Below, piece after piece: positions 1,978-30,458 of a stretch of 64,000 nucleotides of DNA; the first letter of the stretch is position 1, and the number at the start of each line of letters is the position of its first letter. The notes beneath the pieces were generated by a model. The model was not told the DNA's origin and searched no databases. It worked only from the letters and a program-made list of their open reading frames with translations. Both the position numbers and the translations under genes were made by a program. This stretch comes from a virus: the IMG/VR virus record IMGVR_UViG_3300025132_000021, positions 96,343-160,342 of that record; one strand, given 5' to 3'.

Positions 1978-2685
1978 ATGAGCATTCGTCGTCAAGCCTA
2001 TGAGTGGCGAAACATTGTTCAGGGTTCTACTGCTATTGTCAGTAATTCTGGACATCCTATTTTGAATTACGCTGGTGATACCTCCGTAATAGGCAGAGCA
2101 ATTGAGATTCCGCCATTCGTTCCTTATGATATTATGGTCGGAGGCATCGGAAACAACTTAGAAGAACCAGCCATGCTTAGAGCGCATCAATTGATTGTAA
2201 TAGACCACATGGGTAGTTATCCTGCTTCAGCAGGTCTAAACATTCGTATTGGCACAACTCGTTATTTTCAAAATCCAGACGGTATTCCTGATATTGGAAT
2301 GCCCTCATCGGCTATGCCTTTTCAACCAATTACTATTTCGGTTGGTGAATCCAAGTTAGGATTTTTTGAAGAAATCACTCCTCCTGTCTATGTCTTACCC
2401 GGTCAAACATGGGGTATTGAGTTCACTTCTTTTGAAACTTTGAACTCTGGAAGTCCAGTTCCTACATCAGACACCCAAATTGCCAGAGCCTATGTGCGTT
2501 ATTTACTGATTGATGGTCCTGACCAACTAATTGCTATGAAACTTTTACAACAAAACATTCCTATCAGTCCAGAAAACATTCAGTGGTATAAGCAAAACTT
2601 AATTCGCAACCGACTTCGTGCTGATTTGGGAATGGAAGAAATGCTGGAAGAACGCCTCCGTGATAAAGAAAGGAGGTTGATTTGA
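1978..2685 (+). CDS. putative virion protein, paralogue of 2682..3452
   Basis: TTTAAGTA at 1948 (-30); shares YEW, IEIPPFV, PPVYVLPxQTW, TQIA, DGPDxLI and WY blocks with the next ORF. Confidence 0.6.
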   Translation: MSIRRQAYEWRNIVQGSTAIVSNSGHPILNYAGDTSVIGRAIEIPPFVPYDIMVGGIGNNLEEPAMLRAHQLIVIDHMGSYPASAGLNIRIGTTRYFQNPDGIPDIGMPSSAMPFQPITISVGESKLGFFEEITPPVYVLPGQTWGIEFTSFETLNSGSPVPTSDTQIARAYVRYLLIDGPDQLIAMKLLQQNIPISPENIQWYKQNLIRNRLRADLGMEEMLEERLRDKERRLI

Positions 2686-4479: not shown

Positions 4480-7400
4480 ATGGCATCCTCTACGCCTCCA
4501 GAATATACGGGTTCAGACCGTGGTAGTGGTTTGCTTACGGTTACTGATGGCACAATTATTGGTAACAACATTAACGAAATCGTAGTCTCACCGGGAACTT
4601 TAGGAGTTACGGGACAAACAGCCACAATAGCCACAGGCGGAGGTGGCGGTGGTGGTTCTGGAACAGTCACTTCTGTTAGCACTACTTTATCTGGCATTAC
4701 TGTCAATAATTCTACTACGGCGGCTCAAATTGTGGGAACTTTAGGAGTTGCTTCAGGAGGAACAGGTGCAACTACATTAACCGATGGCGGAATCCTGTTG
4801 GGTTCTGGAACAGGGGTTATCACGGCTACGGCACAACCCGCTAATGGACAGTTGCTTATTGGTTCATCAGGTTCAGACCCCGTATTAGCAAACTTAACTG
4901 AAGGCACGAACATTACTATTCAAAATACTCCCGGTGGTATTGAAATTGGAACTACGGCTGCCGCTTACGGCAATTGGACTGTAAAAGCAGGAGCCTCAAC
5001 AGGTTTAGTAGCCTCTGGAGATGAAGTAGATTTTGTAGGTGGAACAGGTATAGCCACACCTACACTAACAGGTGCGAGTCCCAACTTTGATGTCAATATC
5101 GCTGTGGATAGCACAGTTCTGACTGTTTCTCCAGCACCGAGCGCAAATCAACTTCCTTATTTTAGTGGTGTGGGTGCAGGTATCAGCGCAGTAGGACCCC
5201 TTGCGAATGGAGAATTGTTGATTGGTAGCGGAGGTAGCGCACCAGTTCCCGCCGTTTTAACCGAAGGTGCAAACATTACTATTGCCGAAGGACCGGGAAC
5301 AATTACCATTGGAACAACAGGACTCGGAACTATGAGTCAATGGGATATAGCAGCAACGGCTGGTGCTACCCAATCAGTTCAGAACGGACAAGAAGTGGAG
5401 TTCTTAGGAGATACAGCCCTTTTACCTACTGTTGCAGCAGGAGGCATAGACTATACTTTAACTTACAGTATTATCCCAACAGGTGACATACAATCCAGTT
5501 CAAATGTTCAATTTAAGTTCACTCAAGCAACTGATTCCACAGATGGACCTGAACTTAGACTTCGCAAAACCAGAGGCAACACGGGTGCGCCTTCAGCCAT
5601 TTCAGACGGAGATACTCTCGGTCGCATTACTGCCTATCCTTACACAAGCACAGTTCCCACTTATGAATTATCTGGTGGATTAGGCTGGACAGCCAACGGC
5701 AACGCAGGAGATTCTCGGTATAGTGTTGATACTCAAGTTTCAAATGTTACTGCCATGCGATTTGGAACGACTAATGCAGGAAACTTTTACGCAGGTAATC
5801 TTACCGCAGCCACAGGATATGCTTTCCCACTCGTAGATGGTTCTGCTAATCAAACTTTAGTTACTGATGGTGGAGGAAACTTAAGTTTCGCTACCACAGG
5901 TTCAATCAGTAGCGGAGTTGCCACTCAAGTAGCCTTTTATTCCGCCACTAATACTTTAACAGGTTCAAGTAAGTTCACATGGGACGACACAGCAGCAGCA
6001 GAACACTTAGAGATTCAATCAAGCAATCCGTTGCCAATGATTATTGCTACCTCATCTTCAGGAATTAACGGAGCCAGAATGGATTTAACCAGCACAGCCA
6101 CAGCATTGGACAATCGTTCCGTAGGAATTATTGACTTTGCAGGACAGGATTCCGCAGGTAATTCAGATTATTATGTTATTGTTTCGGGCAAGTCTAAACT
6201 TACAACAAGTGGTTCAGAGCAAGGTTTATTGAGTTTCCAAGTAGCAGGAACTTCTGACACGGTGCAAGGATTCCCAGAAGTTATGACTTTAGATAACACA
6301 GGGGTTATTGTCAATCCGGGAACTTTAACTGAAATGGATTTCACAGTTGCCACAGCCAATTTTGATACTGCTTTCCAAATAGATGCTTCTTTAGACGATA
6401 TTGTTACCGCAGTTCCTTTCCGTAATGAAATTGAAATCAAAAAGATTGATGCAGGAATCAATGTAGGACCAGACTTAAAACTTTATAGAGATTCTGCTTC
6501 ACCTGCTGCTTCCGATATTTTAGGACAAGTTTTGTTTTCGGGCAACGATGATACATCACCTACTCCTGTGAAGATAAATTATGCTTCAATTACTGGATTT
6601 ATTACAGATGCTACCGCAGGGGCGCATGATGGTTCAATTGTATTCAACTGTGTGCGAAACGGCACAAGTGCGCCCTATATGAACATTGGTAAGTTATCTG
6701 CTGGTGGTGTGCGAAGTGTTACTATTAACGAAAATCAATTAGACAATGATTTTATCGTGGCGACCACTGGGCAAGCCGAAGCCCTCAAGATTGATGGTTC
6801 AACCGATACTCTCTCATTGGCTGTTCCTATTAACAGTTATCAGGGTTCAACCCCTGCTAATGGTGAATTACTGATTGGAAACGGCTCGCAATTCACTAAA
6901 AACACTTTAACACAAGGGACAGGAATCACCATTACCCCCGGTGCAGGTTCTATTGAAATTGCCGCTACAACATTGGGAACGGTCACAGAAGTAGGCTTGG
7001 CAGCCCCCGCCGCTTTCACGGTAAGTGGTTCACCAGTCACAGGTTCAGGAACTTTAACTTTCGCTGGTGCTGGAAACGCAACTCAAGTAGTTCTGGGAAA
7101 TGGAAACTTAGGAACAAAGTTTGAACAATTTACGGTTTCAGGCAATACAGGAACTCCTCAAGATATTACCACAGGCAACACCCTCAAGATTGATGGAACA
7201 GCAGCATCAGGAATTACCACCGAGGCTATTGCTACCGACACCTTAAGAGTAAGTTTAACTACCACAGGAGTTACTGCTGCAACTTATGGTTCGGAATCAG
7301 TTGTCCCAGTTATTACCGTAGATGCACAGGGGCGCATCACCAGCGTAGTTGATACTACTATCGCAGGATTTACTCTAACGGCTGATTCTGGTAGCAACCA

Positions 7401-8607
7401 AACAGTATCTATTGGCGAGACCATGGATATTGCTGGAGGAACAGCGATTAGCACAGTAGTCGGTGCTACGGATACTGTCACTATTAACCTTGATGACATA
7501 GCAGGTGTAGAAGGTGTTTATACCAATGCCGACATTACTGTTGATGGTCAAGGTCGTGTCACAGCCGCCGCAAGCGGTAGTGGTGGAGGCGGAGTCATAG
7601 TTCAAGACGAAGGAACACCATTAGCCACTACTGCCACCACTCTTAACTTTGTAGGTTCTGGCGTAGTAGCATCGGGAACAGGGGCTACCAAAACTATTAC
7701 CATCTCAGGTGGAAGTGGTTCAGGAACAGTCAATACAGCCAATCAATTTGAAGTTGCTTATTATGCCGCCGCAGGCACAGCAGTTAGTGGAAACACAGGT
7801 TTTACCTATAATGATACAGGAATCGCTGGCACAGCAGGATTATCTGTGGCCGAGGATATTTTCGTAGGTAGCAAATTACAACACTTGGGAGATGCTGATA
7901 CTTACCTTGAGTTCAGCGTAGATACTCTAAACGGCTTTACAGGTGGTAAAAACTGGCTTAATTCACAAGCCTCTCAAACCTCGGTTGGTTATGCTGATGA
8001 TTTAACAGCCCCGACAACTGGTTTTGCAGCGAACTTTCAGGCTTCCAGATTCAGCATTGAGTCTTTTAGCGACCAAATTGGCCGTTTTAACAAGAACGGC
8101 ACAGACAATCAAGTTACCCTAACTAAACTACACACAACGGCATTTGGACAATCTACTCGTGCGATTACGGGTTCTGGAACTACAACTGCGACTCCAGAAG
8201 GTTCTGGTGTTTATGCGGTTCAAACAACTGCCGCAGTAGTAGTTGATTTAACAGTGGGCATAATTGACTTAGGTGGTGGCAATCTGGGCGGTGTAGACAG
8301 CAGAACTGTGCCTGTTGGACAAGTCGCAGATACAGGATTTAATGGATATGGAACTTGGCAAGTCGGAGACCAAGTAACTATTATTGCTGATTGTGGAGGC
8401 ACACCTAACATTACTATTGTTTCACAATACAATGAAACAGATGGTGCAGGAAATGTAACCTCCGCAGCCGCAGGTCAAGTTAATATCAATCAAAGTGCTG
8501 CCCCAGTTACTATTACCACAGACTTTACAGCCAAAACTTTTGTTTTAGTTGAAGATAGTTCGGCAGGTGCAACCGCCCCTGATGTTCGTTGGGTCGCTAT
8601 CGGGTGA
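4480..8607 (+). CDS. tail fibre / spike / receptor-binding protein
   Basis: 1375 aa, Gly/Thr/Ser/Ala rich; repeats NGxLLIG...LTxGxxITI (x3) and TVDxQGRxT (x2) typical of viral fibres; TTTAAGTA at 4450 (-30). Confidence 0.75.
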   Translation: MASSTPPEYTGSDRGSGLLTVTDGTIIGNNINEIVVSPGTLGVTGQTATIATGGGGGGGSGTVTSVSTTLSGITVNNSTTAAQIVGTLGVASGGTGATTLTDGGILLGSGTGVITATAQPANGQLLIGSSGSDPVLANLTEGTNITIQNTPGGIEIGTTAAAYGNWTVKAGASTGLVASGDEVDFVGGTGIATPTLTGASPNFDVNIAVDSTVLTVSPAPSANQLPYFSGVGAGISAVGPLANGELLIGSGGSAPVPAVLTEGANITIAEGPGTITIGTTGLGTMSQWDIAATAGATQSVQNGQEVEFLGDTALLPTVAAGGIDYTLTYSIIPTGDIQSSSNVQFKFTQATDSTDGPELRLRKTRGNTGAPSAISDGDTLGRITAYPYTSTVPTYELSGGLGWTANGNAGDSRYSVDTQVSNVTAMRFGTTNAGNFYAGNLTAATGYAFPLVDGSANQTLVTDGGGNLSFATTGSISSGVATQVAFYSATNTLTGSSKFTWDDTAAAEHLEIQSSNPLPMIIATSSSGINGARMDLTSTATALDNRSVGIIDFAGQDSAGNSDYYVIVSGKSKLTTSGSEQGLLSFQVAGTSDTVQGFPEVMTLDNTGVIVNPGTLTEMDFTVATANFDTAFQIDASLDDIVTAVPFRNEIEIKKIDAGINVGPDLKLYRDSASPAASDILGQVLFSGNDDTSPTPVKINYASITGFITDATAGAHDGSIVFNCVRNGTSAPYMNIGKLSAGGVRSVTINENQLDNDFIVATTGQAEALKIDGSTDTLSLAVPINSYQGSTPANGELLIGNGSQFTKNTLTQGTGITITPGAGSIEIAATTLGTVTEVGLAAPAAFTVSGSPVTGSGTLTFAGAGNATQVVLGNGNLGTKFEQFTVSGNTGTPQDITTGNTLKIDGTAASGITTEAIATDTLRVSLTTTGVTAATYGSESVVPVITVDAQGRITSVVDTTIAGFTLTADSGSNQTVSIGETMDIAGGTAISTVVGATDTVTINLDDIAGVEGVYTNADITVDGQGRVTAAASGSGGGGVIVQDEGTPLATTATTLNFVGSGVVASGTGATKTITISGGSGSGTVNTANQFEVAYYAAAGTAVSGNTGFTYNDTGIAGTAGLSVAEDIFVGSKLQHLGDADTYLEFSVDTLNGFTGGKNWLNSQASQTSVGYADDLTAPTTGFAANFQASRFSIESFSDQIGRFNKNGTDNQVTLTKLHTTAFGQSTRAITGSGTTTATPEGSGVYAVQTTAAVVVDLTVGIIDLGGGNLGGVDSRTVPVGQVADTGFNGYGTWQVGDQVTIIADCGGTPNITIVSQYNETDGAGNVTSAAAGQVNINQSAAPVTITTDFTAKTFVLVEDSSAGATAPDVRWVAIG

Positions 8608-8612: not shown

Positions 8613-9467
8613 ATGAGTCCACCAATTATTATCGGAGTTTGCGCTCAACAAAGTAGCGGAGGTGGAGGCGGAGGCATTACTTTTTCTATTAACTCCGTTG
8701 GTGGAAACAATCAGTCACCAGTTACTTCACCACCCGGTTCTTCTGCTTCATTTGCAGATGTCGGAAACTCATTTACCTTTCCTTTGGCAGTAGACAATCC
8801 ACCCAACTCCACAGGACTTGCCTCTACCCTTGTCGTAGGAGGCACACCCGGAGCAGGAAGGTATGATTGGGGCATCAGATATGATAGCACACCTTTTGAT
8901 GGTTCTCAAAATCTTTTTAGTGCTGGTAAGGTCTTAGACGGTGCTTCTTCAGGACCCAATGCAGGTAAGGCTATGAAAATCTCTTGGGAATATGATGTTT
9001 CAGTGCTTGGCGACCCCGGTTTAGTTGATGCTTTATACGAAACTTGGTGGGCTTTTGATGAGGAGAATCAACTTTACCCACCACTTTCTGCTTCACCCGG
9101 TAAGATAGAAGTTAATATACTTGGTGGCACAGTTCCCGTTAATGCTGTTATGCCCGGTGGAGGCGGATTGGTGACTGTTAATTTGGGCGACCCTGCGAAT
9201 CCATTTATTGAACCCGGTTCTATTATTAGAGTTACTTCTGATTCAGACCCCGACGGCATCCCTGCCTCCCCAGAATTATTCAAATGGGGTTCTAATGGTG
9301 CATATTTTGACAGTGGTGAGTTGGGAACACCTACAATCCCTATGCTTCAAACCATTACTTTTATCGCCCTTGATGGCACAGAAAGCACCGCCACTCAAAA
9401 TCTGATTTGGACTTGTGGATTGAACCCATTTGACACACCAATTGCAGATGTCTTAACTTATCCATGA
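8613..9467 (+). CDS. putative virion or fibre-associated protein
   Basis: ORF 8589..9467; ATG 8613 follows GGGTGA SD; Gly/Pro-rich beta composition. Confidence 0.55.
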   Translation: MSPPIIIGVCAQQSSGGGGGGITFSINSVGGNNQSPVTSPPGSSASFADVGNSFTFPLAVDNPPNSTGLASTLVVGGTPGAGRYDWGIRYDSTPFDGSQNLFSAGKVLDGASSGPNAGKAMKISWEYDVSVLGDPGLVDALYETWWAFDEENQLYPPLSASPGKIEVNILGGTVPVNAVMPGGGGLVTVNLGDPANPFIEPGSIIRVTSDSDPDGIPASPELFKWGSNGAYFDSGELGTPTIPMLQTITFIALDGTESTATQNLIWTCGLNPFDTPIADVLTYP

Positions 9468-9505
9468 TGTAAAGGTTTAAGTAAGTCCTACACGATAGTC
9501 TTATT

Positions 9506-9673
9506 ATGCCTACCGTAGAGTTAAGCAACGAAGATATTACGCTTCTTTTAGAAGTATTGAACCAAACCACCATTCAAGGTCGTGAAGGTGCGATTCGCTT
9601 TTTGAAAGTATATCATGCACTGGAAAACGGTCTTGAAGAATCCGAAGGAGATGAAAACCATGACGACAATTGA
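9506..9673 (+). CDS. small protein (55 aa, MPTVELSNEDITLLLEVLNQTTIQG...), not in ORF track
   Basis: TTTAAGTA at 9476 (-30); clear paralogue of the next ORF. Confidence 0.75.
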   Translation: MPTVELSNEDITLLLEVLNQTTIQGREGAIRFLKVYHALENGLEESEGDENHDDN

Positions 9674-9815
9674 ATTAGAAAATAAAGAAATTGGAATCCT
9701 ACTTCAAATCTTGAATACTACTCAAATACAAGGTGCAGAAAACATTAAAGTATTCATGGAAATCTGGGATAAACTGGTTTCAGTTTATGAACCCACTACT
9801 AACATTGAAGACTAA
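9660..9815 (+). CDS. small protein (MTTIELENKEIGILLQILNTTQIQG...)
   Basis: ORF 9615..9815; GGAGATGA SD before ATG 9660; paralogue of 9506..9673. Confidence 0.7.
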   Translation: MTTIELENKEIGILLQILNTTQIQGAENIKVFMEIWDKLVSVYEPTTNIED

Positions 9816-9847
9816 ACTTTAAGTAGTCGTGGGTAGTAATACTCACT

Positions 9848-10042
9848 ATGACTCCTGCTGACCGCACTTGGACATGGCTTTCTATGGGCTTTGCTGCTTT
9901 AGCCATGCTAACCAGTTTATTTGCTTTAGCCACCGACCCATCTTTTACCAAACAATCTGAAGTTGATTACTTAGATGAAAACCTTCCTGAAGAAGTCTTA
10001 GATGAGATGAGAGGCTTAGGAATGTCTACCTCGGACAACTAA
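9848..10042 (+). CDS. small membrane protein
   Basis: TTTAAGTA at 9818 (-30); one TM helix. Confidence 0.65.
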   Translation: MTPADRTWTWLSMGFAALAMLTSLFALATDPSFTKQSEVDYLDENLPEEVLDEMRGLGMSTSDN

Positions 10043-10080
10043 TACAAAGCATTAAGTATCAGCCACTATTATGAATAATC

Positions 10081-10287
10081 ATGTCGGAAGAGAGTCCAAT
10101 CCCTAAACGCATGACTGTCAAGAAGTTGGGTCAAAAAGTGGATGAACTACAAGAAGTCGTAGATATTATCCATAGTGATATTGGAGAACTCAAAGAACTT
10201 TTGAAGACTATGATTGAACTTCAAATTGTTAAAACTCCAGAAATTGCTGATTCCAATGCGGCTTGGGTAGACCGTATGTATTCATAG
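10081..10287 (+). CDS. small coiled-coil protein
   Basis: ATTAAGTA at 10051 (-30); heptad pattern. Confidence 0.6.
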   Translation: MSEESPIPKRMTVKKLGQKVDELQEVVDIIHSDIGELKELLKTMIELQIVKTPEIADSNAAWVDRMYS

Positions 10288-13200
10288 TTTCTCAAACAAA
10301 GTTTGTTGTTTGCCTAATTCTTTGCTTTCAAATGTTTCGGCTACCCATTTGCTCACTTGAGCATACAAGCCCGCAATATAATGATTACATCCATATTTGT
10401 CAATAAGGGTCTGCATCAGTCCATCATATTTACTAACACCACCTTCAGTCACAGTCAAAATCAAACGACCGGGACATAAAGTTTCTACTTCTTCGCCCGT
10501 GAATGGGTCAGTCTTGGTTTCCATAATAGTCCGACACTTACCACTCACAGGCACACGGCGATAACTTGCCCCACACTTAGGACATCTAACCTTTTGTTGC
10601 CCATAGGCTCTTAGATTACCTCGCATATCTCTGATAAGGTGTCTGTCTATCAATTTACTGGCTTGTTCTTTATTGTCCACAGAAGCCAACATCTCACCTA
10701 ATGCGAACTGTTCCATAGTTTTCCTTCGCATAGAATCTAAAGTATTGTAAGGATTGTTTCTTGGACCTGCTGCACAATCTTCAGTATCGTGCGTATAGCC
10801 GATTTTACCTACGGGCAATTCGCCAGCATCGGTTAAAGTTTCTACAATGGCTATGCCTTCAACTTTCAAAGCCGACTTCGGACTTGGTGGTTCATCTGCC
10901 TGAGTCAATTCATAAAACTCCACAGGATATTCCCAAACCACATCTACATTCAAGGCTTCTTTATCAATTTCAGTAGCCACAATTCTGGTTGTCAAAGTCA
11001 AAGGTGCGTCCATGCGTCCACCACGACTCTTAGGTAAAAACATACGGCTAAAGTTTATTAGTCCTTCTGCCAAGAGCAAGATACAATCAATATCTCCATC
11101 ACAATTTCGGCGTTTCGCTGCATGATAAAATGGATGTCCGTAATGACCTTTAACACCCGCTACACCAATGATACGAGCCAATACTGCCCCACTGGTATGC
11201 GGTGCAAGACCCATAATCAATTGTCCAATCAAACTTTCTTGAGGGTTATCTTCGTTGATTTCATAAAAAGGTTCAAGTTCATACATGGTTTCTAACATAT
11301 CATTAGTAAATCTCATAGCGGCGACCAAAGAGTTCACACAATTTTCAGCAACCACTACATCTTGAGGCATCAATTCAATAATCTGGTCATCTGCGACCAC
11401 AGGTTTTCCTTGACAATCTACCACATAACCTAAATCTACTGCTTGTGCTGCCGTTAGTCCGATTTCATCGGGTCTAAAATGAGTCATGGTAATATCTACC
11501 ATGTCAAAGCGAATAGTGCCATCACGGAAGGCACTCGTTCCATTTCGGTGTCTTAACACTCCTTTGAGCATAGCCTCTGGAGTTTTCTCAGCACTTCGTA
11601 GACCTTTGCTACCTTTTACTTCAGGTTCAGTGGCTTGATGAGTAGTTTCTAAACAATCTTTCCAAATCTCCTCTGTCCCCAGATGTTGTTTAATGACTCC
11701 TACAAAGTTTGTTTCCGTTGCCTCGTGCGGTGCTGTCGCATCGCCCGAACAAACACCCCGCCAAGTCTGTGTATCACAAGTTGGACACACACGGACACCT
11801 ACTGATACGCTTTCGTTCTTGCGAGCAGCATCACGAATACGGCGTTGAGAACCAGAGTTAAAACCCACAGGCCAAAGCCCATGCACAGGAGGATTCATCT
11901 CCCGATGTTTAGAACCTTCGGGCTTGCCCATTCTGGCTCCAATTCGCAAAGTTGTTCTGGGTCGGATTTCATAATCGGCCAAATCATTTAACCACTCTAT
12001 TGCGGATTCATAAATACTTAAGTTTATTTTCAAAGATTTCTCAACTTTGGCTAATAAATTAAGAACTAATAAACTTTCATCTCCAAACAGATTGCCCTCT
12101 GCGTCTATGTTAATCTGCGCTCGGTAGACCAATTCCCTAAACTTTTCAGGAACTTGAATCTTTTCTCCACACAGGCTAATCGTGATATTACTCATCAACT
12201 CATAACCTTCTTCGGCTGTCAAATCTTGCCAGCCTGTGGCGACATATTGAGGTGCAATTGGCACGCCATAAACTTTTGATTGTTCTACCGCTTCCAAGAA
12301 ATTAGCAGGTGCGCTAATCATTTCTTTCTTTAACACAGCATTGTGCCATTCTGAAACATAAGGACTCGGAGGAAGTGGATGGTTATTTTCTAAGAACTCA
12401 CCTAATGGAACTAAGAGTTCACCCAAGTCCCAAACTTTACGAATCGGCCACTCTGGTTCAGTTGGCAGAACCGTCCAATCGTCCTCTGGTTCTAATCCTG
12501 CTAAAACTTTCAACTCTGCATCGGAATTAAACCTCTGTGCCGAACCATCATTAAGTTCTACATAAGGTCCGTCAATACTTGTGCAAGGAGTTGCCACAGT
12601 TGCTTTACCCGGTCTCTCATATTTCATTTGAGTTCCACAGATAACGAAACCTGCCATAGCCATCATAGTAACTGGGTGCATAGCAGTTGTCGCCAATCCT
12701 GCTAATCGGCTTCGCCCATAGCGCAATCTTAACCCGCCGCTTTGCATGGGCAATCCAAACAAAGGTCGTCCTGCTAAGAAATCACTCATAAACTTATCAC
12801 TTGGTTTAATTTCCGTAGACCCTGTTTTTGTTTGCACAAAACTTTTTAGCCAATCCCAGCCATCAAGTTCTAACGCTTCCACATATTTTAGAATCTTTGG
12901 TGCTTTCAGAACCAGACCTTCACACATAACCAACAGCATACCTTCACGAACTTTGTTAGTTGGCACTCTGGGTAAATCACGCTGTCCTGTGACTTCACCA
13001 CCCACGCCTTCACCATCAACATAAACAGGACAATTTTGGGCAATTACTTCTAATTGAGGATTACTTGGTCTGTATTGTAGACCACGACTATATTTAGAAA
13101 CTTCTTCCTTGTATCTTTCCACTTCTGCAAAAGTAACTTTCGGAGTTCCCAAACCAAAATCACGGCGTAAGACATCTGCAATCAAAACACTAAGAGCCTG

Positions 13201-13848
13201 ACCTGTTCCACCTGCTGAACGAATTGGTCCAGCATAGTTCACGGCTAAACATTCCGTAGCGTCATCATTAGATAGAATCCGACAGGATACTACACCTTCC
13301 AGTGGGGCTACAAGGATTCCTTCAGTTAGCACCGCCAATCCTGCACAGATACCATGATACAAACAAGCAGAGATTCTCAAATGTTCACCACGAGCCTTCT
13401 GCGCTTCAGTTTCATAAGTTTCTAAAGTTTCTTTCCAATTGGCTTTTCCAATGTCATTATTGAATCCCATAACACTTCCAGTGCCTCCGCAATCATCACA
13501 CGGAACTTTCCAAGTGGGTGTTTTAGCAATTTCACCAGAACCATTACAAGGTTTGCACTTTTGTTTAACACCATACAATAAACTTTCAGCCGTTACAATA
13601 CGAGCAATATCAATTGCTACCAATTCACGGTTTCCATCGTGAATCTCTGTTAATTCACGGATTTGCTCTGCGGTGCGACGAAGATGTAAGAAATCCAGAA
13701 GTTTTTGAGTTCGGTCTGCCAAGTCGCTGGCTCTTGGGATTTCTACTGTTAAACGAGGGTCTAAACCTTTCGCACGAGCCTTATCTGCTAATTGATAAAC
13801 AACATCACACTCTTCTTCTAATCTCTGAATGTATGCTTCATAATCCAT
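10282..13848 (-). CDS. polC: DNA polymerase D large (catalytic) subunit DP2
   Basis: ARAKGLDP..VEIP, YAGPIRSAGGT, RLRYGRSRLAG, RIGARMGKPE, FRDGTIRFD, catalytic HAAKRRNCDGDxD, RGGRMDAPL, GNLRAYGQQKVRCPKC..YRRVP. Confidence 0.95.
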   Translation of the reverse strand: MDYEAYIQRLEEECDVVYQLADKARAKGLDPRLTVEIPRASDLADRTQKLLDFLHLRRTAEQIRELTEIHDGNRELVAIDIARIVTAESLLYGVKQKCKPCNGSGEIAKTPTWKVPCDDCGGTGSVMGFNNDIGKANWKETLETYETEAQKARGEHLRISACLYHGICAGLAVLTEGILVAPLEGVVSCRILSNDDATECLAVNYAGPIRSAGGTGQALSVLIADVLRRDFGLGTPKVTFAEVERYKEEVSKYSRGLQYRPSNPQLEVIAQNCPVYVDGEGVGGEVTGQRDLPRVPTNKVREGMLLVMCEGLVLKAPKILKYVEALELDGWDWLKSFVQTKTGSTEIKPSDKFMSDFLAGRPLFGLPMQSGGLRLRYGRSRLAGLATTAMHPVTMMAMAGFVICGTQMKYERPGKATVATPCTSIDGPYVELNDGSAQRFNSDAELKVLAGLEPEDDWTVLPTEPEWPIRKVWDLGELLVPLGEFLENNHPLPPSPYVSEWHNAVLKKEMISAPANFLEAVEQSKVYGVPIAPQYVATGWQDLTAEEGYELMSNITISLCGEKIQVPEKFRELVYRAQINIDAEGNLFGDESLLVLNLLAKVEKSLKINLSIYESAIEWLNDLADYEIRPRTTLRIGARMGKPEGSKHREMNPPVHGLWPVGFNSGSQRRIRDAARKNESVSVGVRVCPTCDTQTWRGVCSGDATAPHEATETNFVGVIKQHLGTEEIWKDCLETTHQATEPEVKGSKGLRSAEKTPEAMLKGVLRHRNGTSAFRDGTIRFDMVDITMTHFRPDEIGLTAAQAVDLGYVVDCQGKPVVADDQIIELMPQDVVVAENCVNSLVAAMRFTNDMLETMYELEPFYEINEDNPQESLIGQLIMGLAPHTSGAVLARIIGVAGVKGHYGHPFYHAAKRRNCDGDIDCILLLAEGLINFSRMFLPKSRGGRMDAPLTLTTRIVATEIDKEALNVDVVWEYPVEFYELTQADEPPSPKSALKVEGIAIVETLTDAGELPVGKIGYTHDTEDCAAGPRNNPYNTLDSMRRKTMEQFALGEMLASVDNKEQASKLIDRHLIRDMRGNLRAYGQQKVRCPKCGASYRRVPVSGKCRTIMETKTDPFTGEEVETLCPGRLILTVTEGGVSKYDGLMQTLIDKYGCNHYIAGLYAQVSKWVAETFESKELGKQQTLFEKL

Positions 13849-13888
13849 GGCTACGCCTCTCTATGATAACATAGGGGCTATCACTGGC

Positions 13889-16597
13889 TTAAACTTGTCC
13901 GTCCATGAAAGAATATGGGCTACGGTCGTTAATAGAAACAACTTTTAGTTCACCATTCCAAACTAAAGTAGAACCATTTTCTAACTTGCGAGAAGGAATT
14001 GGTGCTAACGCCAAATCAGGGAAAGACCCTGAATCTTTAGGGAAACCTTTCTCTACATTAAAACTTTCAATTTGCATCTCTGAACCATCTGGGAAAATCA
14101 GATAAATAAAATCTTCAGAATAAGTGTTGCCTAAATCTACGGCCACTACCATATCTTCGGATTTCCAATCCTCCATTCCTACATCATCAGCAGCCATTTC
14201 TATCCAGTTTAACAAATACTCGGCTAATTGAAAACTAATGTTTTCTAATCCATCGTTATTCTTTTCTTCAAAAGAAAGAATTGGTTGTCTAAGCATAGTA
14301 ATATCGCCATCATTATATCCTAAATAACTAAAACTAAATTGACGAGGTGAGCGAGCATTAGCATCTCTAATAAAACCAAAGTTTTTACTACGATAGATAC
14401 GGGCTAAGTTTCGGTGAAATACTAAGTTTTCATCTGACATCCAGAGCCAAAACAAATCAGCATCACTACTTACTGAACTTTCAGCCCCTTTTGCTAATGC
14501 CTTGTAGCAAGCACACTTTGGTTCAATTGCCGAGCAACTCATTGGCTCAGGTGCTTTCATGCAAACACAAGGATTGGATTTAGTAGCACCACAGCAACAC
14601 GAAGTTTTGCTAAGTTTTTCTTCAGCATCACGACGGCGTTTGAGCGACGGTGTTCCGTCCAGAGGAGTCCAGTTCACAGGTTCTCCAAACTCCATTGGTC
14701 TTTGAATAGGTGCAGAACCTTCTTCAGATGCAAAAGGATTTAATTTTTTAGCAGCAGTTTGAGCCTTATCTTTAATTTTTTGAGTTGCTGGCATCTGTTC
14801 TACGGTAGACCTTACTCCACCATATTTGCGGTTGCACCACTCTTCTTGTCTTTCTCTTTCCTCTACCAATGCCGACTCATCTTTAGTATTCGCAAAGACA
14901 GATGCTTTAATTGCATTCCCGAACTCTTGATAAAATGCTGCTTTTTCATTATGTGTCAGACCTGAGATTTCGGGGGCAACATCTTCTACCAACATATTAA
15001 CAATCATTGAGCAATTTATGTTCTTTTGAGGAGTTGAATACAGGGTGTAGTTATCATCACCAGCCCGACAATAAATACCCATAGCCCTCGCAATAGGCCA
15101 TGCCAATCTTTTAATTGCGCCTGATGGAATCTCAAACCGTTGCTTAACATAATCTTTACCTTCTTTCTTATCCACCATTGTTGCTTGTTTAGTAAAACTA
15201 CTAACCATTTCTGCAACACCCATCACTGAAGGTTCACTTGTTGCACTGGCGGTTGGAATCTTTGACATAGGTTCTCCACGAGCCAAGGCCGCTACCACAT
15301 CTAATGGAGATTGCACCACACCAGTTCCACTGACAGTAGGACCAGTAGTGCCTGTTTCTAATTGGGCTAACTCTTCCATCATAATTGATGACAAATCTCT
15401 GTAAAACTTCTGACTTTTATTTCCATAAGGCGGTGCAGCCACGACATAACCATCTTTGGCTAATCTTTTTAATCCACCAATTAAAGCGGCTCGTAATGGT
15501 TCAGTTCTTGATTTTGCCCCATCAACTTCTCCCTTAACATAATCTGCTTGAAAACTTTGTTCAGCACGCATTTCTGGAGGCTTATAGGTGCGACCCAACA
15601 AATCATAGATTTCTTCTTCAGTTGCCCCGCCGAGATACTCGTTGGTATCACGGTCAAACAATCCGTATTCATTAAGTTTCAAACCTTTGCGCTTGGCTGC
15701 CGAGCGCATACCAATGTTATATCCAGAAGGTCCTGTAAAATAAAGTAAGGCTGCGCCGATACCAGTAGGTGTGCTAACTTTAATATCTACTTTAACACCA
15801 TCAATAACTAATTGAGTTTTCTTTTCACCCAACCAATTATATTTCTCATAGTTTCCTTCTAAGTCGGCTACTATTTCTGGCAAAGTAATACCTTCTTTAA
15901 GAATAACTACTACATCAAGGTCGCCCGGGTCTTCCCGACCACGACGATAACTTCCACAAACTTCTACAAAGTCTGCATAAGGTTCTAACATATCTGAAAC
16001 TTTATTGGCTAAGAGTTCTGCTTCTGCACGAGTCATACGCTCTGATTCATCTCGGTCTTCTGCCCCAAACTTTTCAACTAATTGTTTCATAATTTCTTCT
16101 TCACTAATCAATCCTAATCTAACCATAGATTCCAACTGCAACAAAGTTTCTTGCATCTGGGCTTCTTCAATCATCTTTTGATACATCACAGCACGCTCGG
16201 CGTAACCTTTTGGAACTTTACCTCTGACCACGGCATTAAAAGTTTCAATTTCGTCCACATCAACTTCTTCCATAACATACAAAATACGATAAGCAGGTTC
16301 GTCGTCTAAACTTTCTTCTTGGAGAATGTAGGAAACTTGGTCTTCCGCTTCGCCACGAACACCAATGAAAACTTTGTAAGGTAAATCTGCTTTAGTAGAC
16401 ACGGCTTCTAAACTCACGAACTCATCAGCAGGCAAAAGTTCTTGAACACGATATTCCGCATCAAAGTCCATTAGATATTTAGAATTACGAAACATTTGTT
16501 GAGCAAATTGATAAGGCACTAAAACATACCTTTGATTATCTCTGGGGTCAGAAACAATAGTTCCCATAGGAGATACAGAAACAAAATTAAGTTGCAT
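13889..16597 (-). CDS. mosaic polyprotein containing a family X DNA polymerase core (approx. 15566..16036) and a Cys-rich module
   Basis: PolX motifs GSYRRG..GDLDVV, KVDIK, LLYFTG, GLKLNEYGLF, TEEEIY..LG..PPEMR; flanking modules unassigned. Confidence 0.85.
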   Translation of the reverse strand: MQLNFVSVSPMGTIVSDPRDNQRYVLVPYQFAQQMFRNSKYLMDFDAEYRVQELLPADEFVSLEAVSTKADLPYKVFIGVRGEAEDQVSYILQEESLDDEPAYRILYVMEEVDVDEIETFNAVVRGKVPKGYAERAVMYQKMIEEAQMQETLLQLESMVRLGLISEEEIMKQLVEKFGAEDRDESERMTRAEAELLANKVSDMLEPYADFVEVCGSYRRGREDPGDLDVVVILKEGITLPEIVADLEGNYEKYNWLGEKKTQLVIDGVKVDIKVSTPTGIGAALLYFTGPSGYNIGMRSAAKRKGLKLNEYGLFDRDTNEYLGGATEEEIYDLLGRTYKPPEMRAEQSFQADYVKGEVDGAKSRTEPLRAALIGGLKRLAKDGYVVAAPPYGNKSQKFYRDLSSIMMEELAQLETGTTGPTVSGTGVVQSPLDVVAALARGEPMSKIPTASATSEPSVMGVAEMVSSFTKQATMVDKKEGKDYVKQRFEIPSGAIKRLAWPIARAMGIYCRAGDDNYTLYSTPQKNINCSMIVNMLVEDVAPEISGLTHNEKAAFYQEFGNAIKASVFANTKDESALVEERERQEEWCNRKYGGVRSTVEQMPATQKIKDKAQTAAKKLNPFASEEGSAPIQRPMEFGEPVNWTPLDGTPSLKRRRDAEEKLSKTSCCCGATKSNPCVCMKAPEPMSCSAIEPKCACYKALAKGAESSVSSDADLFWLWMSDENLVFHRNLARIYRSKNFGFIRDANARSPRQFSFSYLGYNDGDITMLRQPILSFEEKNNDGLENISFQLAEYLLNWIEMAADDVGMEDWKSEDMVVAVDLGNTYSEDFIYLIFPDGSEMQIESFNVEKGFPKDSGSFPDLALAPIPSRKLENGSTLVWNGELKVVSINDRSPYSFMDGQV

Positions 16598-16623
16598 ATA
16601 ACTAAGTTATACTCAACCGATAC

Positions 16624-18009
16624 TTAAAGATATGGATAAGGAGTAGCACTCCAAACCTCTATGGTTTCCGCACCATATTCTCCAGACATCAATTCATAAC
16701 CAACAAACTTCCAGATTTCAGCCCATGAGCCTCCGCAGGAATTACACCTTACTTCTTGTAAGCCGTTTTCTAAAGAACCCTCGTAGCCAATATCGTCTGC
16801 ACCACACCAAGGACAGTGCATCAATTCTGCCATTTCCATGAAAGTTTCAGCATTCATAGCCTTGTCTATCTCCCAATCTCCATCATTATTCTCTTCATCA
16901 AGATAATTACGGGATACTCCAAGTTCATACACAGGTTCTTTATCCATGACACAAAGTTCATTTTCTTGCCAGAAAAAACTGATGTTATAGGCAATTGTAG
17001 AAGCCCAATCTACGGCTTCCCACGGAATCCAAGCAGTTAATACGATACGGTCAAAATCTTTTCCTTCTTCGCCTTTCATGTGGTCTATACCCTCATGTCC
17101 GAACAATGCCCCTGCGTAAAACTTACTCTGCCACAACCAAGAAGTAATCTTATCTCCATAAACTCCATATTGGTCTTGCTTTCTATTTTCCCAATTGCCT
17201 AATGAATCTACATTAACTGGTGTGCCTACGGGAACATAAAGAACTCTCCATGCTTGCATCATTATTCCATGGTCGTCATCAGAATACATCCAAGTTCCCT
17301 TTTCAAATCTTTCAAGCCAAATATCAAACATCCTCTCAAAGTATTCATCTTTAGTGGTATCTTCGCCAAGTTCCGAACCATCAGGCAAGTCAAACCCTTC
17401 CTCATAAGCCCCCAATCCTCCTCCAGCCATATTATGTTCTGCCCAATGTTTAATATCTTCTTGAGCAGGTGAATACCAAATCCGTTTTATTTCATTTATG
17501 ATATAATCTGTGCAAGCAAAGTTTTCTTCACTTGATTCTGCATCCAATCTACGGGTCTCATTGTTTTTGGGAAATAAACTGCTGCCCCAAAACTTTTTGC
17601 CAGTGCGCTTGGCCTTACGAACTACCATTGGAGTTCCTGTGCTATCACGAGGCACACGGTTTAGATAACCAGACTTGACTAAGTTCTCTAACTCATAAAC
17701 ACGGTTTAACAAATTGCGTCGCCAGTTTTCTACTCGGTGAACTCTGGTCGTTCCAGCAACTTTCACTCCATCTACCCAGTATTGCACTCGGATAGCATCA
17801 CGACCTTTCGCCCGACTGGTCTGCCCAGTCACGCTGGAATAAACTCGGATTTCGCCCTCACCCAAAGGACGGGTGAACACTCTTTCTTTGACAACTCGGA
17901 TTGCCCCACTGGGATATTTACTGGACCGTTCTTCTATGGAAAGTTCCCTAAAACTCAAGGCTTCCATAAAATCTTGCATTTGAGCCACGCTAATATCAAC
18001 ATAACTCAT
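16624..18009 (-). CDS. mosaic multi-domain protein (topoisomerase Zn-ribbon-like module, possible ART-like module, C-terminal Zn ribbon)
   Basis: TTTAAGTA at 18039 (-30); PMVVRK..GKKFWGSSLFP; CPWCG...CNSCG. Confidence 0.55.
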   Translation of the reverse strand: MSYVDISVAQMQDFMEALSFRELSIEERSSKYPSGAIRVVKERVFTRPLGEGEIRVYSSVTGQTSRAKGRDAIRVQYWVDGVKVAGTTRVHRVENWRRNLLNRVYELENLVKSGYLNRVPRDSTGTPMVVRKAKRTGKKFWGSSLFPKNNETRRLDAESSEENFACTDYIINEIKRIWYSPAQEDIKHWAEHNMAGGGLGAYEEGFDLPDGSELGEDTTKDEYFERMFDIWLERFEKGTWMYSDDDHGIMMQAWRVLYVPVGTPVNVDSLGNWENRKQDQYGVYGDKITSWLWQSKFYAGALFGHEGIDHMKGEEGKDFDRIVLTAWIPWEAVDWASTIAYNISFFWQENELCVMDKEPVYELGVSRNYLDEENNDGDWEIDKAMNAETFMEMAELMHCPWCGADDIGYEGSLENGLQEVRCNSCGGSWAEIWKFVGYELMSGEYGAETIEVWSATPYPYL

Positions 18010-19760: not shown

Positions 19761-21485
19761 TTAACTGTTGTCATCGTCCCACATATCAGGTGGAAGCACT
19801 TGAATGAATGTGGCTTTCTGTATGTTTTTCTCTGTGCATTCCAACCAACCTTGGTTAATCATGTATTCCCATTCTTTGTCGCTAAATGGAACTCTGTCCC
19901 GCATTTCTTTGACATCTGCAAACGCTCTTTCTAAAGTTTGTGCATAGTCATTTAAGCGTTGGTGAACTTCAGCAATTCTTTTAGATGCCCCTGACTTAAT
20001 ATACTTCCAATCTCCATCTTGAATCAATGTATTCAAAGATTCAGTAAAGATGCGCTCGGCTTTTTCAATACTCATGCGAGAAACTACTCTTTCACCATTT
20101 AGTCGGGCAAACCCTTTGCACAGGTTCACAAACTCTTGAAACTTTCGGAAATCACGACTGGTTCTTTTGTCTAAGAAAGCAGCAGAGAACTCTGGCATCG
20201 CCTTAATACGATTCATGGCTTCACGAATGTCCATACGATGTGGAGTAATATCGGGTTCTTGTTCACTTACATACCTTAGATACTGACGGAAGAAACTTCT
20301 CCACATACTCAAGTTGTTGTTAAACTCTTTCTTGAGATACTTACCATTCATAGCATCAAGGATTTTATCTTCAATAGCATACTCGGTATCACCATCAGTC
20401 AAGGTCATACGAGCGAAAATCAATGTCAAACGACTAAGAATCTGTGGTGTGTATTCTCCAAAAGCACCTAACATACCCATTTTAGCAGGTCTACCATCTT
20501 TGGTTTCTGTTTTGGGGTCCCAATCACGAGGAGGATTACCTAAGAACATAAAATTAACTTTACCTTCTCTTTTGGTGTCCACTTGTCCTTTTTGCATTGT
20601 GAAACTACCATTAGCCATCACATTCATTAGTTCACCGAATACCTCTTGATTCCATGTTTGAAACTCGGACACAGCGATGCGTTCATTATTCATCTTTGGT
20701 ATCAATCCCAACTCAATTGAGTTGAGGTCTTCGCCACTCATGGCTCCGAATAACCCCGGAATTGTGCAAAGTTTTCCACTGGAGGCTACGCCACACGGCA
20801 CTAAAGGTTCAATCATCTGTTCAATCAAATGGTCTTTACCCTCGCCCATACTGCTGATAATACCCATGTGTAGCATATCAGTTTTCTTTTGAGGACTTAG
20901 GCAATACAACATAACTCCATATTTGATAGGAGGGTCTGCATAAAGTTTAGACCATAAAGTATCATCACGAACCATCAATTCTAATGGGCTGAAAGCAGGA
21001 CCGTGTTCATCACACAAAGCCATAAACTCCGTGAACTGTTCATCAGTCATCTGGCTACTTTGCATTTCAACATTCTTTTGAATGTCAGTGACTACAAAGA
21101 CCTTATCACGACCCATCATTTGATAAGCACCGCTTACCATGAGTTGTGAACCATCACGAATACTTTCAGTTAGCATCATCATTGTTTGACGCAGCCGTTC
21201 TGAATCCATACCACCGGGTCTGGAATCTAAACTACCATTATGTGCCATGCACTCTACGGCGTAAGTTCCATCACTGATGAAGAAACGAATAGCCGACTGG
21301 TCAGGATTAGGACTTTTAGAATTAAGAGGAACTTCTTCCATCTTCAGACAAATGCCTGAACCTATTTCTAAATGCTTCTGTGAAATCTTAGCGGCATAGA
21401 TGCGCTCAATGTTGGCATCGGTGCTATGATAGGTGGATGTTGCAGACTCTACGAACTCATGTATTTCGCTCGGAATGTCTAACAT
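19761..21485 (-). CDS. divergent MCM-like AAA+ helicase
   Basis: Walker A-like ISSMGEGKD, GKLCTIPGLFG (MCM GKxxSxxGL), AVSEF at Walker B, FLGNP, ILSRL arginine finger, RKFQEFVNLCKGFARL sensor 2. Confidence 0.7.
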   Translation of the reverse strand: MLDIPSEIHEFVESATSTYHSTDANIERIYAAKISQKHLEIGSGICLKMEEVPLNSKSPNPDQSAIRFFISDGTYAVECMAHNGSLDSRPGGMDSERLRQTMMMLTESIRDGSQLMVSGAYQMMGRDKVFVVTDIQKNVEMQSSQMTDEQFTEFMALCDEHGPAFSPLELMVRDDTLWSKLYADPPIKYGVMLYCLSPQKKTDMLHMGIISSMGEGKDHLIEQMIEPLVPCGVASSGKLCTIPGLFGAMSGEDLNSIELGLIPKMNNERIAVSEFQTWNQEVFGELMNVMANGSFTMQKGQVDTKREGKVNFMFLGNPPRDWDPKTETKDGRPAKMGMLGAFGEYTPQILSRLTLIFARMTLTDGDTEYAIEDKILDAMNGKYLKKEFNNNLSMWRSFFRQYLRYVSEQEPDITPHRMDIREAMNRIKAMPEFSAAFLDKRTSRDFRKFQEFVNLCKGFARLNGERVVSRMSIEKAERIFTESLNTLIQDGDWKYIKSGASKRIAEVHQRLNDYAQTLERAFADVKEMRDRVPFSDKEWEYMINQGWLECTEKNIQKATFIQVLPPDMWDDDNS

Positions 21486-26838: not shown

Positions 26839-26859
26839 TCGTGCGACAGCATGGTAACT

Positions 26860-27657
26860 ATGGAACCTTGGCGTAAGCACTTTGAAATGTTTTCAGCAGA
26901 TGCTCTGGAGGACATGAAAACTTATTCTGACAATACTCACGAAGAAAGGGAATGGATGTGTTATGTCTACGAAAAGGATGGTCGTTATGAACTTGGCTCG
27001 CCGTCGCTTGGCACAGAATCTCGTATTGAGGTTAATCCAGTCGCTAAGGCAGCGCAAGATGCTGGCAAAGGTTTGACTAATCGTATGTGGACTATCCACG
27101 GACACCCTCTAAAAGATGGTAAGATTTACACAGGTCGCCAATACTTTTCCTCTACGGATATTATCAATGAGTTCCTAAAAACTCGTGATACCAACGAACC
27201 CGTAGTTCAATGGATTACTTATCCTCATCAACAATTAGATACTAATACTGGTAAGAAAGTTATTCACAACCGATGCCGAACTTTAGTGTTTCCATCTCGT
27301 GATGTAGTTATCAAGGCCATGCAAGTTAGCAATCCAGATGTAGATGTTATGGCAATTACCAGAGAATCTGGACAAAACCGCAACGCTGCCGATGGTAGTT
27401 TAGTAAATGATTCAGGTATTGATTGGTTCGCTTTCCAAGAAGCACTGGGAGATATGGGCTACATGGGCATTATGGATTTAGAAGGACCAGCCGCAGGAGC
27501 CAAGCCTTTCCGTAGTGAATCTATGTTTGTGAAAAAGTTTGGAATGCTTTCTGTGATTGCACTCGGAATTGCAGGATTCGCATACTTGAGCAAAACTCAA
27601 GGATTTGGTGCAGAAGTTGAAGTCGTTGATGGCTTAGGCGAATGGCACGAAATCTGA
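26860..27657 (+). CDS. JAB/MPN-like metallopeptidase domain protein with C-terminal TM
   Basis: EREW...IHGHP...FSSTD matches E..HxH..SxxD; TTTAAGTA at 26830 (-30). Confidence 0.55.
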   Translation: MEPWRKHFEMFSADALEDMKTYSDNTHEEREWMCYVYEKDGRYELGSPSLGTESRIEVNPVAKAAQDAGKGLTNRMWTIHGHPLKDGKIYTGRQYFSSTDIINEFLKTRDTNEPVVQWITYPHQQLDTNTGKKVIHNRCRTLVFPSRDVVIKAMQVSNPDVDVMAITRESGQNRNAADGSLVNDSGIDWFAFQEALGDMGYMGIMDLEGPAAGAKPFRSESMFVKKFGMLSVIALGIAGFAYLSKTQGFGAEVEVVDGLGEWHEI

Positions 27658-29289: not shown

Positions 29290-30458
29290 AAACAATACCA
29301 AACTTTCCGTTTCCTGAACCCGACTTAGCACCCACTGGCAAAGCCCTTGATGTAGAGGCTCGTAAGCCTCGTCAAATGTTTAACCCTGCTAATGGTTCAG
29401 AATGGTGGTGTCTCAACAAATATGACGGTGTTCGTTCTTTATCAGGATATTGGGCTGTCAATGATTACTTAGCCCAGACCAGTCGCAAAGACAACATCCA
29501 AGATGGATATAACACTGAATACCCCCGTGAATGTCTACAAGAGGTTTATCGTTATCTTCGTGATGCAGGAGTCTGGAAACAAGTAGGCGAGGGCGTAGGG
29601 CCTGTTATTGATGGTGAGATGTATGATGACCGAGTAACTGCCGACCCTGACTATTTTGATACCTTAAGTGGTATGGTTCGTAAATCTTCAGGAACATCAC
29701 CGGGCTTTGAAGGTATTTACTATTTGATATTTGATTGCTATTGGCCTGATGACCCAGACTTAGTATATCAAGACCGCATGACTCGTTTAATTGCTGATAT
29801 GCAATATGCTTTGGGATTGTTAGAACCCACTTGGCCGAATCAAAGAAAAAATAAATTGCGTTTCTGTTCTATTCCCACTTCTGGTGAATCTTATTTTCTA
29901 TACAATGACCCTGCACTTGCACCTGCATACAGCACCACTCCCGATACCTTAGACCTTAGCACTCCGTCAGAATCTTTTGTTCCCAAAGACCACGCCGCTA
30001 TTAACATTTTGAATCCTGATTATTGGAAGATTTTAGGTATAGGAACTTCTTCTTATACGGATACTGCCGAGTTATTGGTTTATTATTTAGAATCTGCTGA
30101 AAGTTTAGGTTTAGAAGGAATTATGGTTCGTAGTAATCACAGAGGATATATCGGTGGACGAGCAGGAACAAATCTTTACAAGTTAAAATCTTTTGAAGAT
30201 GACGAGTTTGAAATTATTGGCTACAATGGAGTAATGTCTGAAGCAGGAATACTTTTGAATCGTCCAGTATGGAAATGTATTACTAAATCTGGAGAAGAGT
30301 TCTTAGCCAGCGCACCGGGAACTCATGCTTCACAAGAGCAACAATGGGAAGACCGAGACAAGATTGTTGGCAAGATGCTGACTGTCAAATATCAAAACCT
30401 TTCGGCCAGAGGTGTCCCAAGATTCCCCAAAGGTGTAGCCATTCGTGATTACGAGTAA
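29286..30458 (+). CDS. lig: ATP-dependent DNA ligase
   Basis: KYDGVR, IDGE, IFD, EGIMVR, KLK, OB-fold ending VKYQ..GVPRFP. Confidence 0.9.
   Translation: MKTIPNFPFPEPDLAPTGKALDVEARKPRQMFNPANGSEWWCLNKYDGVRSLSGYWAVNDYLAQTSRKDNIQDGYNTEYPRECLQEVYRYLRDAGVWKQVGEGVGPVIDGEMYDDRVTADPDYFDTLSGMVRKSSGTSPGFEGIYYLIFDCYWPDDPDLVYQDRMTRLIADMQYALGLLEPTWPNQRKNKLRFCSIPTSGESYFLYNDPALAPAYSTTPDTLDLSTPSESFVPKDHAAINILNPDYWKILGIGTSSYTDTAELLVYYLESAESLGLEGIMVRSNHRGYIGGRAGTNLYKLKSFEDDEFEIIGYNGVMSEAGILLNRPVWKCITKSGEEFLASAPGTHASQEQQWEDRDKIVGKMLTVKYQNLSARGVPRFPKGVAIRDYE

Follow-up and report, generated by a model that had tools for sequence, protein, structure and literature searches.

The stretch of DNA considered here (the window) is 64,000 nucleotides long and forms the right-hand 64 kb (C1:96343-160342) of a single 160,342-bp IMG/VR record, IMGVR_UViG_3300025132_000021, which is called C1 below. 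It contains a gene for DP2, the large subunit of the archaeal DNA polymerase D (PolD), which is located in a virus-like genome and carries the following features, given in window positions (aa, amino acids; PIP, PCNA-interacting protein).

10282-13848, minus strand: DP2, 1188 aa, without internal stop
11086-11109, minus strand: residues 914-921, with the catalytic motif RNCDGDID (NCDGDED in cellular DP2s)
13369-13572, minus strand: insertion of about 70 aa in the N-terminal domain, a DnaJ-like zinc finger with two CxxC motifs, residues ~93-160
10474-10584, minus strand: C-terminal zinc finger C1089-C1125 with a 19-aa spacer, read from sequence only
10294-10308, minus strand: C-terminal QQTLF, a PIP-box-like motif read from sequence only
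13888-13893, minus strand: putative TATA-like element TTTAAG, ~40 nucleotides before the DP2 start and overlapping the upstream stop codon

Judged by its sequence, this DP2 is a true and ordinary member of the PolD family, and the novelty lies in where it is encoded. The N-terminal, central and two-barrel catalytic domains of DP2 are all matched in Pfam (E values of 8e-83 to 1e-104), the match to TIGR00354 is above the cut-off (929 versus 702 bits), and the AlphaFold model of the protein compares with P. abyssi PolD at a TM score of 0.73-0.74. All three catalytic Asp residues are kept, and the form NC/ADGDxD is found in 121 of 121 clade members. The full-length DP2 with intact DGDxD of the original prediction is therefore confirmed by the 1188-aa open reading frame (ORF), its three Pfam domains and the RNCDGDID motif. 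Like the archaeal enzymes of P. abyssi and T. kodakarensis (PDB 6T8H, 6HMS, 6KNB), the viral PolD has three domains in DP2, the NCDGDxD motif, a zinc finger and a PIP-like tail at the C-terminal end, and Mre11-like metal motifs on the small subunit DP1. It is set apart by its location in a virus-like genome, by DGDID in place of DGDED, and by the zinc finger of DnaJ type inserted into the N-terminal domain. The insertion, modelled as a beta-hairpin finger plus a helix, is common to the viral DP2 clade and absent from aligned cellular DP2s. The C-terminal domain with its zinc finger is the part of cellular PolD that binds DP1. The PIP-like pattern is matched by 98 of the 121 clade members, and by analogy this tail would bind PCNA. 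Relative to its counterparts in related genomes the nonsynonymous divergence (dN) of DP2 is 0.03 and the synonymous divergence (dS) 0.60 (dN/dS about 0.05), and therefore the gene is under strong purifying selection. Its GC content at third codon positions (GC3) is 0.312, that of DP1 0.335, and the genome mean is 0.318 +/- 0.038.

DP2 had been described as abutting virion genes, which is roughly right, as four short convergent ORFs, a 292-aa ORF and a 1375-aa fibre-like ORF stand between it and the jelly-roll genes. The claim that host-type neighbours are lacking agrees with the C1 locus and with six related loci, where none is seen. An MCM-like helicase, PriS, an ATP ligase and an XPD/DinG-type helicase are all located in the window, as had been stated, and neither DP1 nor PolB is found within it.

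The second subunit and the replication genes

The remainder of the record encodes further parts of the machinery. The genes related to replication and transcription, together with the right-hand inverted terminal repeat (ITR), are listed in positions of C1 where so marked and otherwise in those of the window.

C1:19245-20588, plus strand: DP1, 447 aa (motif scan; PRK04036, E 1e-124; PDB DP1, E 1e-69)
C1:31072-31809, plus strand: PCNA (profile match)
C1:15740-16381, plus strand: TBP (profile match)
42782-43765, minus strand: TFB, nearest among the Poseidoniia tested to Poseidoniales TFB
19761-21485, minus strand: divergent MCM-like helicase (weak Pfam match, E 5.6e-4; 62% identical in the relative G001)
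29286-30458, plus strand: ATP-dependent DNA ligase
31964-34225, minus strand: SF2 (XPD/DinG-like) helicase (profile match)
39474-40370, minus strand: candidate junction resolvase with an Endonuclease VII domain
49800-50753, minus strand: primase small subunit PriS-like (weak match)
63902-64000, no strand: right-hand 99-bp ITR (exact repeat match on C1)

DP1 has an OB fold and Mre11-like phosphoesterase motifs; it carries all of the metal-binding and exonuclease motifs (DxH, GD, GNHD, HG and GHxH), which are present in five viral copies. It scores slightly below the PRK04036.1-3 cut-off (417 versus 445 bits) and far above every other family; the Pfam DNA_pol_E_B search of C1 missed it, a false negative, and the motif scan recovered it. 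DP1 and PCNA are also present in the relatives G001, G003 and G005, and PCNA in G004. The virus had been thought perhaps to borrow DP1 and PCNA from its host; as C1 itself carries both genes beyond the window, and related genomes carry them too, this idea falls and the finding gains strength, with the complete PolD holoenzyme and its clamp encoded by the virus-like genome. No PolB was found in the rest of the contig either, and PF00136 had no match in five records of the group, of which two were covered end to end. The clamp loader, no RFC being found on C1, and the RNA polymerase seem to come from the host instead.

The motifs of the two subunits predict that DP1 and DP2 pair into an enzyme able both to polymerise and to proofread. 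The viral DP1 measures 420-460 aa as against 540-570 in the Poseidoniales (Marine Group II archaea, MGII), and it is without an N-terminal part that is reported to bind GINS in Thermococcus (PMC9023282).

C1 has a GC content of 41%, is ~94% coding, and is uniform in GC and GC3 along its length. Its genes are oriented inward from both ends and form two unequal arms; the sign of the GC skew switches at ~105 kb, which is the 3' end of DP2, the final gene of the minus-strand arm. The exact 99-bp ITR of C1 is probably the assembler's edge of a repeat, kilobases long, that was collapsed, and does not give the true repeat length, because the related record G001 (IMG/VR 3300046163_000066, 166,176 bp) has a terminal repeat of 3.46 kb at 99.4%, which also suggests a true genome length of ~165 kb. 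Further genes of C1 encode NrdJ, a 5'-3' exonuclease, an XPF nuclease, a Holliday resolvase-like nuclease, a dNMP kinase, a deaminase, Fpg and UvsE, and there are methylases and a holin-like match. The MCM counterpart in a related locus (L014) matches PF00493 clearly.

From these observed genes, motifs and patterns of conservation a replication scheme can be proposed that is drawn from Thermococcales PolD biology, PolD structures and archaeal replication. Viral DP1 would bind the C-terminal domain of DP2 and proofread, and the PIP-like tail of DP2 would dock onto viral PCNA, loaded by host RFC; the MCM-like helicase would unwind, PriS would prime, and the 5'-3' exonuclease together with the ATP ligase would finish Okazaki fragments, with nucleotides (dNTPs) supplied through NrdJ, dNMP kinase and deaminase. 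Viral TBP and TFB would recruit the host RNA polymerase. Gene orientation and GC skew are consistent with two forks, one started from each terminal repeat, that would converge close to the 3' end of DP2. As a guess, the resolvases suggest that the genome ends may be completed by a recombination or hairpin route, neither a protein-primed PolB nor a protelomerase being seen, and, likewise as a guess, DP2 may be linked through its zinc-finger insertion to another viral protein.

It could also be argued that the viral PolD is real but accessory, boosting or repairing synthesis or drawing off parts of the host replisome as a decoy, with the bulk of the genome copied by PolD or PolB of the host. This is considered improbable. 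The lack of RFC, the weak MCM and PriS matches, the location of DP1 and DP2 86 kb apart on opposite arms and not in one operon, and the presence of another host mimic, a stalk peptide described below, would suit such a role; DP1 and DP2 genes are, on the other hand, often unlinked in archaea too. Every catalytic motif has been kept in both subunits across a clade of 53-96% identity, which would be needless in a decoy, and the genome brings its own PCNA, ligase, nuclease and dNTP supply, with no other replicase gene found.

Related genomes and the integrity of the record

The relative G001 is colinear with C1 end to end, 138 of 197 ORFs being shared in the same order, and DP2 (71%), DP1 (79-80%), PCNA, TBP and TFB are among them. 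A long-read relative measures 165,272 bp, a third record of 150 kb contains DP1, DP2 and PCNA, and a truncated 123-kb record (G004, IMGVR_UViG_3300038530_004289), classed as 'provirus' by IMG/VR, holds DP2 and PCNA. Both edges of the DP2 gene are crossed by contigs of two other runs: the 10.28-kb junction by X4 (9339-12683) and X2 (10033-10972, no differences), the 13.87-kb junction by X4 (13570-16849) and X2 (13400-17042). The same layout around DP2 recurs in six other assemblies. At least 120 DP2 sequence clusters belong to the viral clade; the best 120 of the homologue search are 53-96% identical, and cellular DP2s reach 35-44% over long segments. The genomic context is virus-like in each clade member checked, which is a part of the clade. 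The runs that contain the DP2 stretch are marine and come from 17 studies; the raw-read run X23 barely contains it. DP2 has no match among INPHARED phages or PLSDB plasmids.

These data bear on the suspicion that the record was assembled as a chimera or comes from the chromosome of a reduced archaeon. Genes for DP1, DP2, PCNA, TBP, TFB and PriS are normally cellular, CheckV rates the record 65% complete, one relative carries the 'provirus' label, and such chimeras do occur in IMG/VR. However, the independent assemblies that span both DP2 junctions, the repeated layout, the second genome that is colinear to its terminal repeats and the uniform GC and GC3 are all at odds with an artefact, and no ribosomal protein, tRNA synthetase, RNA polymerase or metabolic core gene is found among the scanned ORFs of C1. 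An artefactual or cellular origin is thus largely refuted already and is regarded as extremely improbable.

The motif scan of IMG/VR returned three clade members, a 6.3-kb contig, and two further matches that are non-coding or unrelated. The 6.3-kb contig (L187, IMGVR_UViG_3300001598_000765) was considered as a second lineage of PolD viruses and set aside, as it joins a Methanomicrobia-like DP2 fragment (GC 42-45%) to phage genes (GC 24-32%) and is probably chimeric. Viral-type DP1 and DP2 (L020, L102 (G006) and other clusters) are also present in public metagenome-assembled genomes (MAGs) labelled Woesearchaeota, Thorarchaeota and Flavobacteriaceae. The Woesearchaeota MAG holds them alongside its own copies; given the other two labels this is read as mis-binning and not taken as evidence on the host. 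A Methanomassiliicoccales-type DP2 (L059) is located inside a 'Dialister' MAG.

Origin of the viral PolD and the inferred host

Trees were built with FastTree, with a quick LG+C20 run and with a careful LG+C20 run on 29 rows; the DP2 trees are without Thermococci, Nitrososphaeria and Asgard sequences, and the outgroups of the DP1 tree are too few for a placement of the viral sequences. Viral DP2s group together as a single long-stemmed clade (100/100, LG+C20), and its sister is a group of 1300-1450-aa DP2s in the FastTree tree, the quick LG+C20 tree (SH-like approximate likelihood ratio test, SH-aLRT, 99) and the careful LG+C20 tree (98/98). By name look-up this sister group is Poseidoniales. 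The DP2 phylogeny thus has the long branch that had been anticipated, with the viral clade sister to the sampled Poseidoniales and not nested in them; therefore the capture is old.

The join between viruses and Poseidoniales connects two long branches, which speaks against this placement, and for that reason additional checks were made. When the Poseidoniales are removed, the viral clade stays in Thermoplasmatota beside other Poseidoniia (support 82) and is not moved to the DPANN outgroup, and a position outside cellular Thermoplasmatota is rejected by the approximately unbiased (AU) test (p=0.023). The spacer of the C-terminal zinc finger is 19-21 aa in viral DP2s, 18-25 in Poseidoniales and 1-2 in nearly all others scored. 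From these sequence data we infer that both PolD subunits were acquired in one event, from a relative on the Poseidoniales stem; this would predate the divergence of the sampled families, and both would have been inherited since.

Other genes point to the same archaea. Viral DP1 is 43-48% identical to MGII versus 34-39% to Marine Group III (MGIII), and viral TFB 53-57% versus 45-46%. Two copies of a peptide at L001:9296-9907 (C1:9296-9907) match the C terminus of the Poseidoniales ribosomal stalk P1/P0, ending in GLGSLFG; GLGSLFG followed by a stop is found in 19 of 20 MGII (Poseidoniales)-type genomes and in 0 of 21 other Poseidoniia genomes, and the same pattern did not find the peptide in G001. 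The host is probably a member of the Poseidoniales. No element of the viral type was seen in 61 Poseidoniia genomes. A single tRNA-Ala(TGC) is located at C1:80312-80385; against 301 Poseidoniia genomes it has only 72-79% or very short matches and is uninformative on the host.

Candidate virion genes, probable kind of element and further genes

Candidates for virion proteins are located in the window and, in one case, elsewhere on C1.

1978-2685, plus strand: candidate capsid protein with a single jelly-roll, from a family of 4-6 paralogues in each genome
2682-3452, plus strand: adjacent jelly-roll paralogue
4480-8607, plus strand: 1375-aa fibre/spike-like protein (weak PHROG tail-fibre match, E 2.7e-4; strain-variable)
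C1:64730-65914: HerA-family ATPase, conserved in four genomes; packaging role putative

The jelly-roll family is conserved in all four large records, with adjacent pairs among its paralogues. The model of the capsid candidate (pLDDT 78) is a jelly-roll with a helical tail. Compared with 48,161 chains, its top match is VP4 of SPV1 (Z 7.8, root-mean-square deviation 3.3 Å over 127 residues; next match 5.9), and the HHIV-2/HCIV-1 chains give Z 5.0/4.9. SPV1 VP4 is also matched by Foldseek in BFVD (E 6e-4), and in the PDB Foldseek gives no match below E 0.001 (best 2.5e-3). Atlas neighbours of the candidate are P2_N/P2_C at 0.76-0.77, as a lead only. Terminase (PF03237) is not found in five records, nor are terminase, portal or HK97 capsid found by PHROGs on the structural arm, although divergent forms may escape profiles. 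A PHROG labelled terminase does match the HerA-type ATPase, and this label was rejected, as Atlas and Pfam place the ATPase in DUF87/HerA. A MoxR-like AAA protein with a large insertion, a vWA-like protein and the HerA ATPase form one conserved cluster (C1:53113-65914).

These genes and models suggest a tailless single-jelly-roll virus. The reading that we prefer, with a probability of a little over 0.7, is that C1 represents a linear double-stranded DNA virus of Poseidoniales, ~165 kb long and tailless, with a probable single-jelly-roll icosahedral capsid, which replicates with its own heterodimeric PolD. The viral lineage with a captured PolD proposed at the outset is upheld in being virus-like, non-cellular, non-chimeric, on a long branch and free of a detected PolB, and is corrected where DP1 and PCNA were supposed to be borrowed.

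Several points, besides the long branches, weigh against this reading. The case for a virus is made from genes and models, and in the RNA run X16 the cover is low and equally flat over genes and gaps, so that this run, which may hold DNA, shows no expression. The capsid call is borderline, since it rests on one AlphaFold model with a VIA Z of 7.8, below the tool's caution line of 8. The host assignment comes from sequence likeness. PriL, GINS and RPA are not recognised on C1, and MCM and PriS are divergent, so that, RFC included, part of the replisome must be host-supplied or unrecognised.

Among known elements, the Borgs and mini-Borgs of Methanoperedens invite a different assignment. They are linear, with long ITRs, unequal replichores, PCNA and single-jelly-roll capsid-like proteins, they carry transcription factors without RNA polymerase, and all encode PolB (PMC12660748). 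By description only, the PolD group shares with them the linear layout, ITRs, unequal replichores, PCNA, transcription factors and jelly-roll proteins; it differs in that no PolB is found, in habitat, and in a host signal of Poseidoniales and not Methanoperedens. A Borg-like linear extrachromosomal element of Poseidoniales, with its own PolD, no infectious virion, and jelly-roll proteins acting at the surface or in vesicles, would account for the long ITRs, the arms of co-oriented genes, the GC-skew switch and TBP/TFB (PMC12660748), as well as for the modest capsid fold match and the terminase and HK97 capsid that were not found. It is nevertheless judged unlikely. A length of ~165 kb, a fibre-like gene, a holin-like match, the HerA ATPase, methylases and UV repair suit a lytic virus, the jelly-roll genes are conserved, multicopy and paired, and the occurrence of pieces mis-binned in unrelated MAGs, with none seen in the 61 Poseidoniia genomes, is unlike a stably resident element. 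The conclusion on PolD is independent of this choice.

The known viruses of Poseidoniales, Magrovirales and Adrikavirales, are tailed Caudoviricetes of about 100 kb, the former with PolB and the latter with no polymerase (PMC11706807). The PolD group shares with them the marine setting, the inferred host order and archaeal-type replication genes, whereas it is linear with ITRs and has PolD, and no terminase or PolB is found in it. It resembles SPV1 (Portogloboviridae) and HHIV-2/HCIV-1 (Halopanivirales) in the borderline fold match of its capsid candidate and in a HerA/FtsK-type ATPase of putative packaging role; HHIV-2/HCIV-1 genomes have ITRs as well. These genomes measure about 20-31 kb and are not known to encode PolD, whereas the PolD group has ~165 kb, 4-6 jelly-roll paralogues, a full replisome, and TBP with TFB. 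No match to single-jelly-roll archaeal viruses is found at the sequence level (PHROGs). The lineage fits no family tested.

Kazlauskas et al. 2020 list PolD for archaea only, and they call enigmatic the split by which two-barrel polymerases belong to cells and palm polymerases to viruses (PMC7281927). A 2016 survey found no viral PolD (PMC4889955), and Yutin et al. 2024 list viruses with PolA, B and C only (PMC11348598). No report of a viral PolD was found in the open-access PMC/bioRxiv literature; an earlier report elsewhere is possible. The PolD-encoding group is real and probably undescribed. The fuller proposal, for which the odds appear slightly better than even, is that MGII are infected by an order-level group, undescribed and spread around the globe, of tailless viruses of ~150-180 kb with a single-jelly-roll capsid. 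This would be the first known viral lineage to replicate with a complete PolD, captured once from a stem Poseidoniales ancestor, and would break the split between cells and viruses.

If a clade of viruses has retained the two PolD subunits from a time before the divergence of the sampled Poseidoniales, this split is not absolute, and the clade would offer a system for asking why PolD capture is so rare. It points to overlooked large viruses of very abundant surface-ocean archaea, and could provide a mesophilic PolD-PCNA set for biochemistry. It would also explain why stray 'DP2' genes turn up in MAGs of unrelated organisms; trees that take DP2 as an archaeal marker can be misled by such bin contamination.

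The following gene is located directly upstream of DP2.

13889-16597, minus strand: mosaic protein of 902 aa whose repair-type PolX module (Pol beta palm/thumb) spans ~residues 130-348

The PolX module is variable, being present in the relatives L008 and L190 and not detected at the same position in L009. The genes upstream of DP2 in general (window 13889-18009, minus strand; G001 h_50624-54749) are mosaics of shuffled modules, and a 690-bp deletion is present in this region in runs X4 and X16. Three tandem C5 cytosine methyltransferases (window 52275-54936, minus strand) are located beside DP2 in relatives instead. On the other side of DP2, promoter-like short TTTAAGTA motifs precede small ORFs at window 9457-10070, in the same genome that encodes TFB and TBP. 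A 268-aa protein (window 26851-27657, plus strand; 69% identical in G001) has a JAMM/MPN+-like HxH...S..D motif and is a candidate protease, and it is followed by a kinase-like ORF that also carries a zinc finger of the DnaJ type (window 27667-29289, plus strand). A PP2C-family phosphatase match among the window proteins is placed by motifs at window 34388-35134 (plus strand). A Get3/ArsA-family ATPase (L003:8473-9618, C1:46473-47618) scores above the TIGR00345 cut-off and is conserved in G001.

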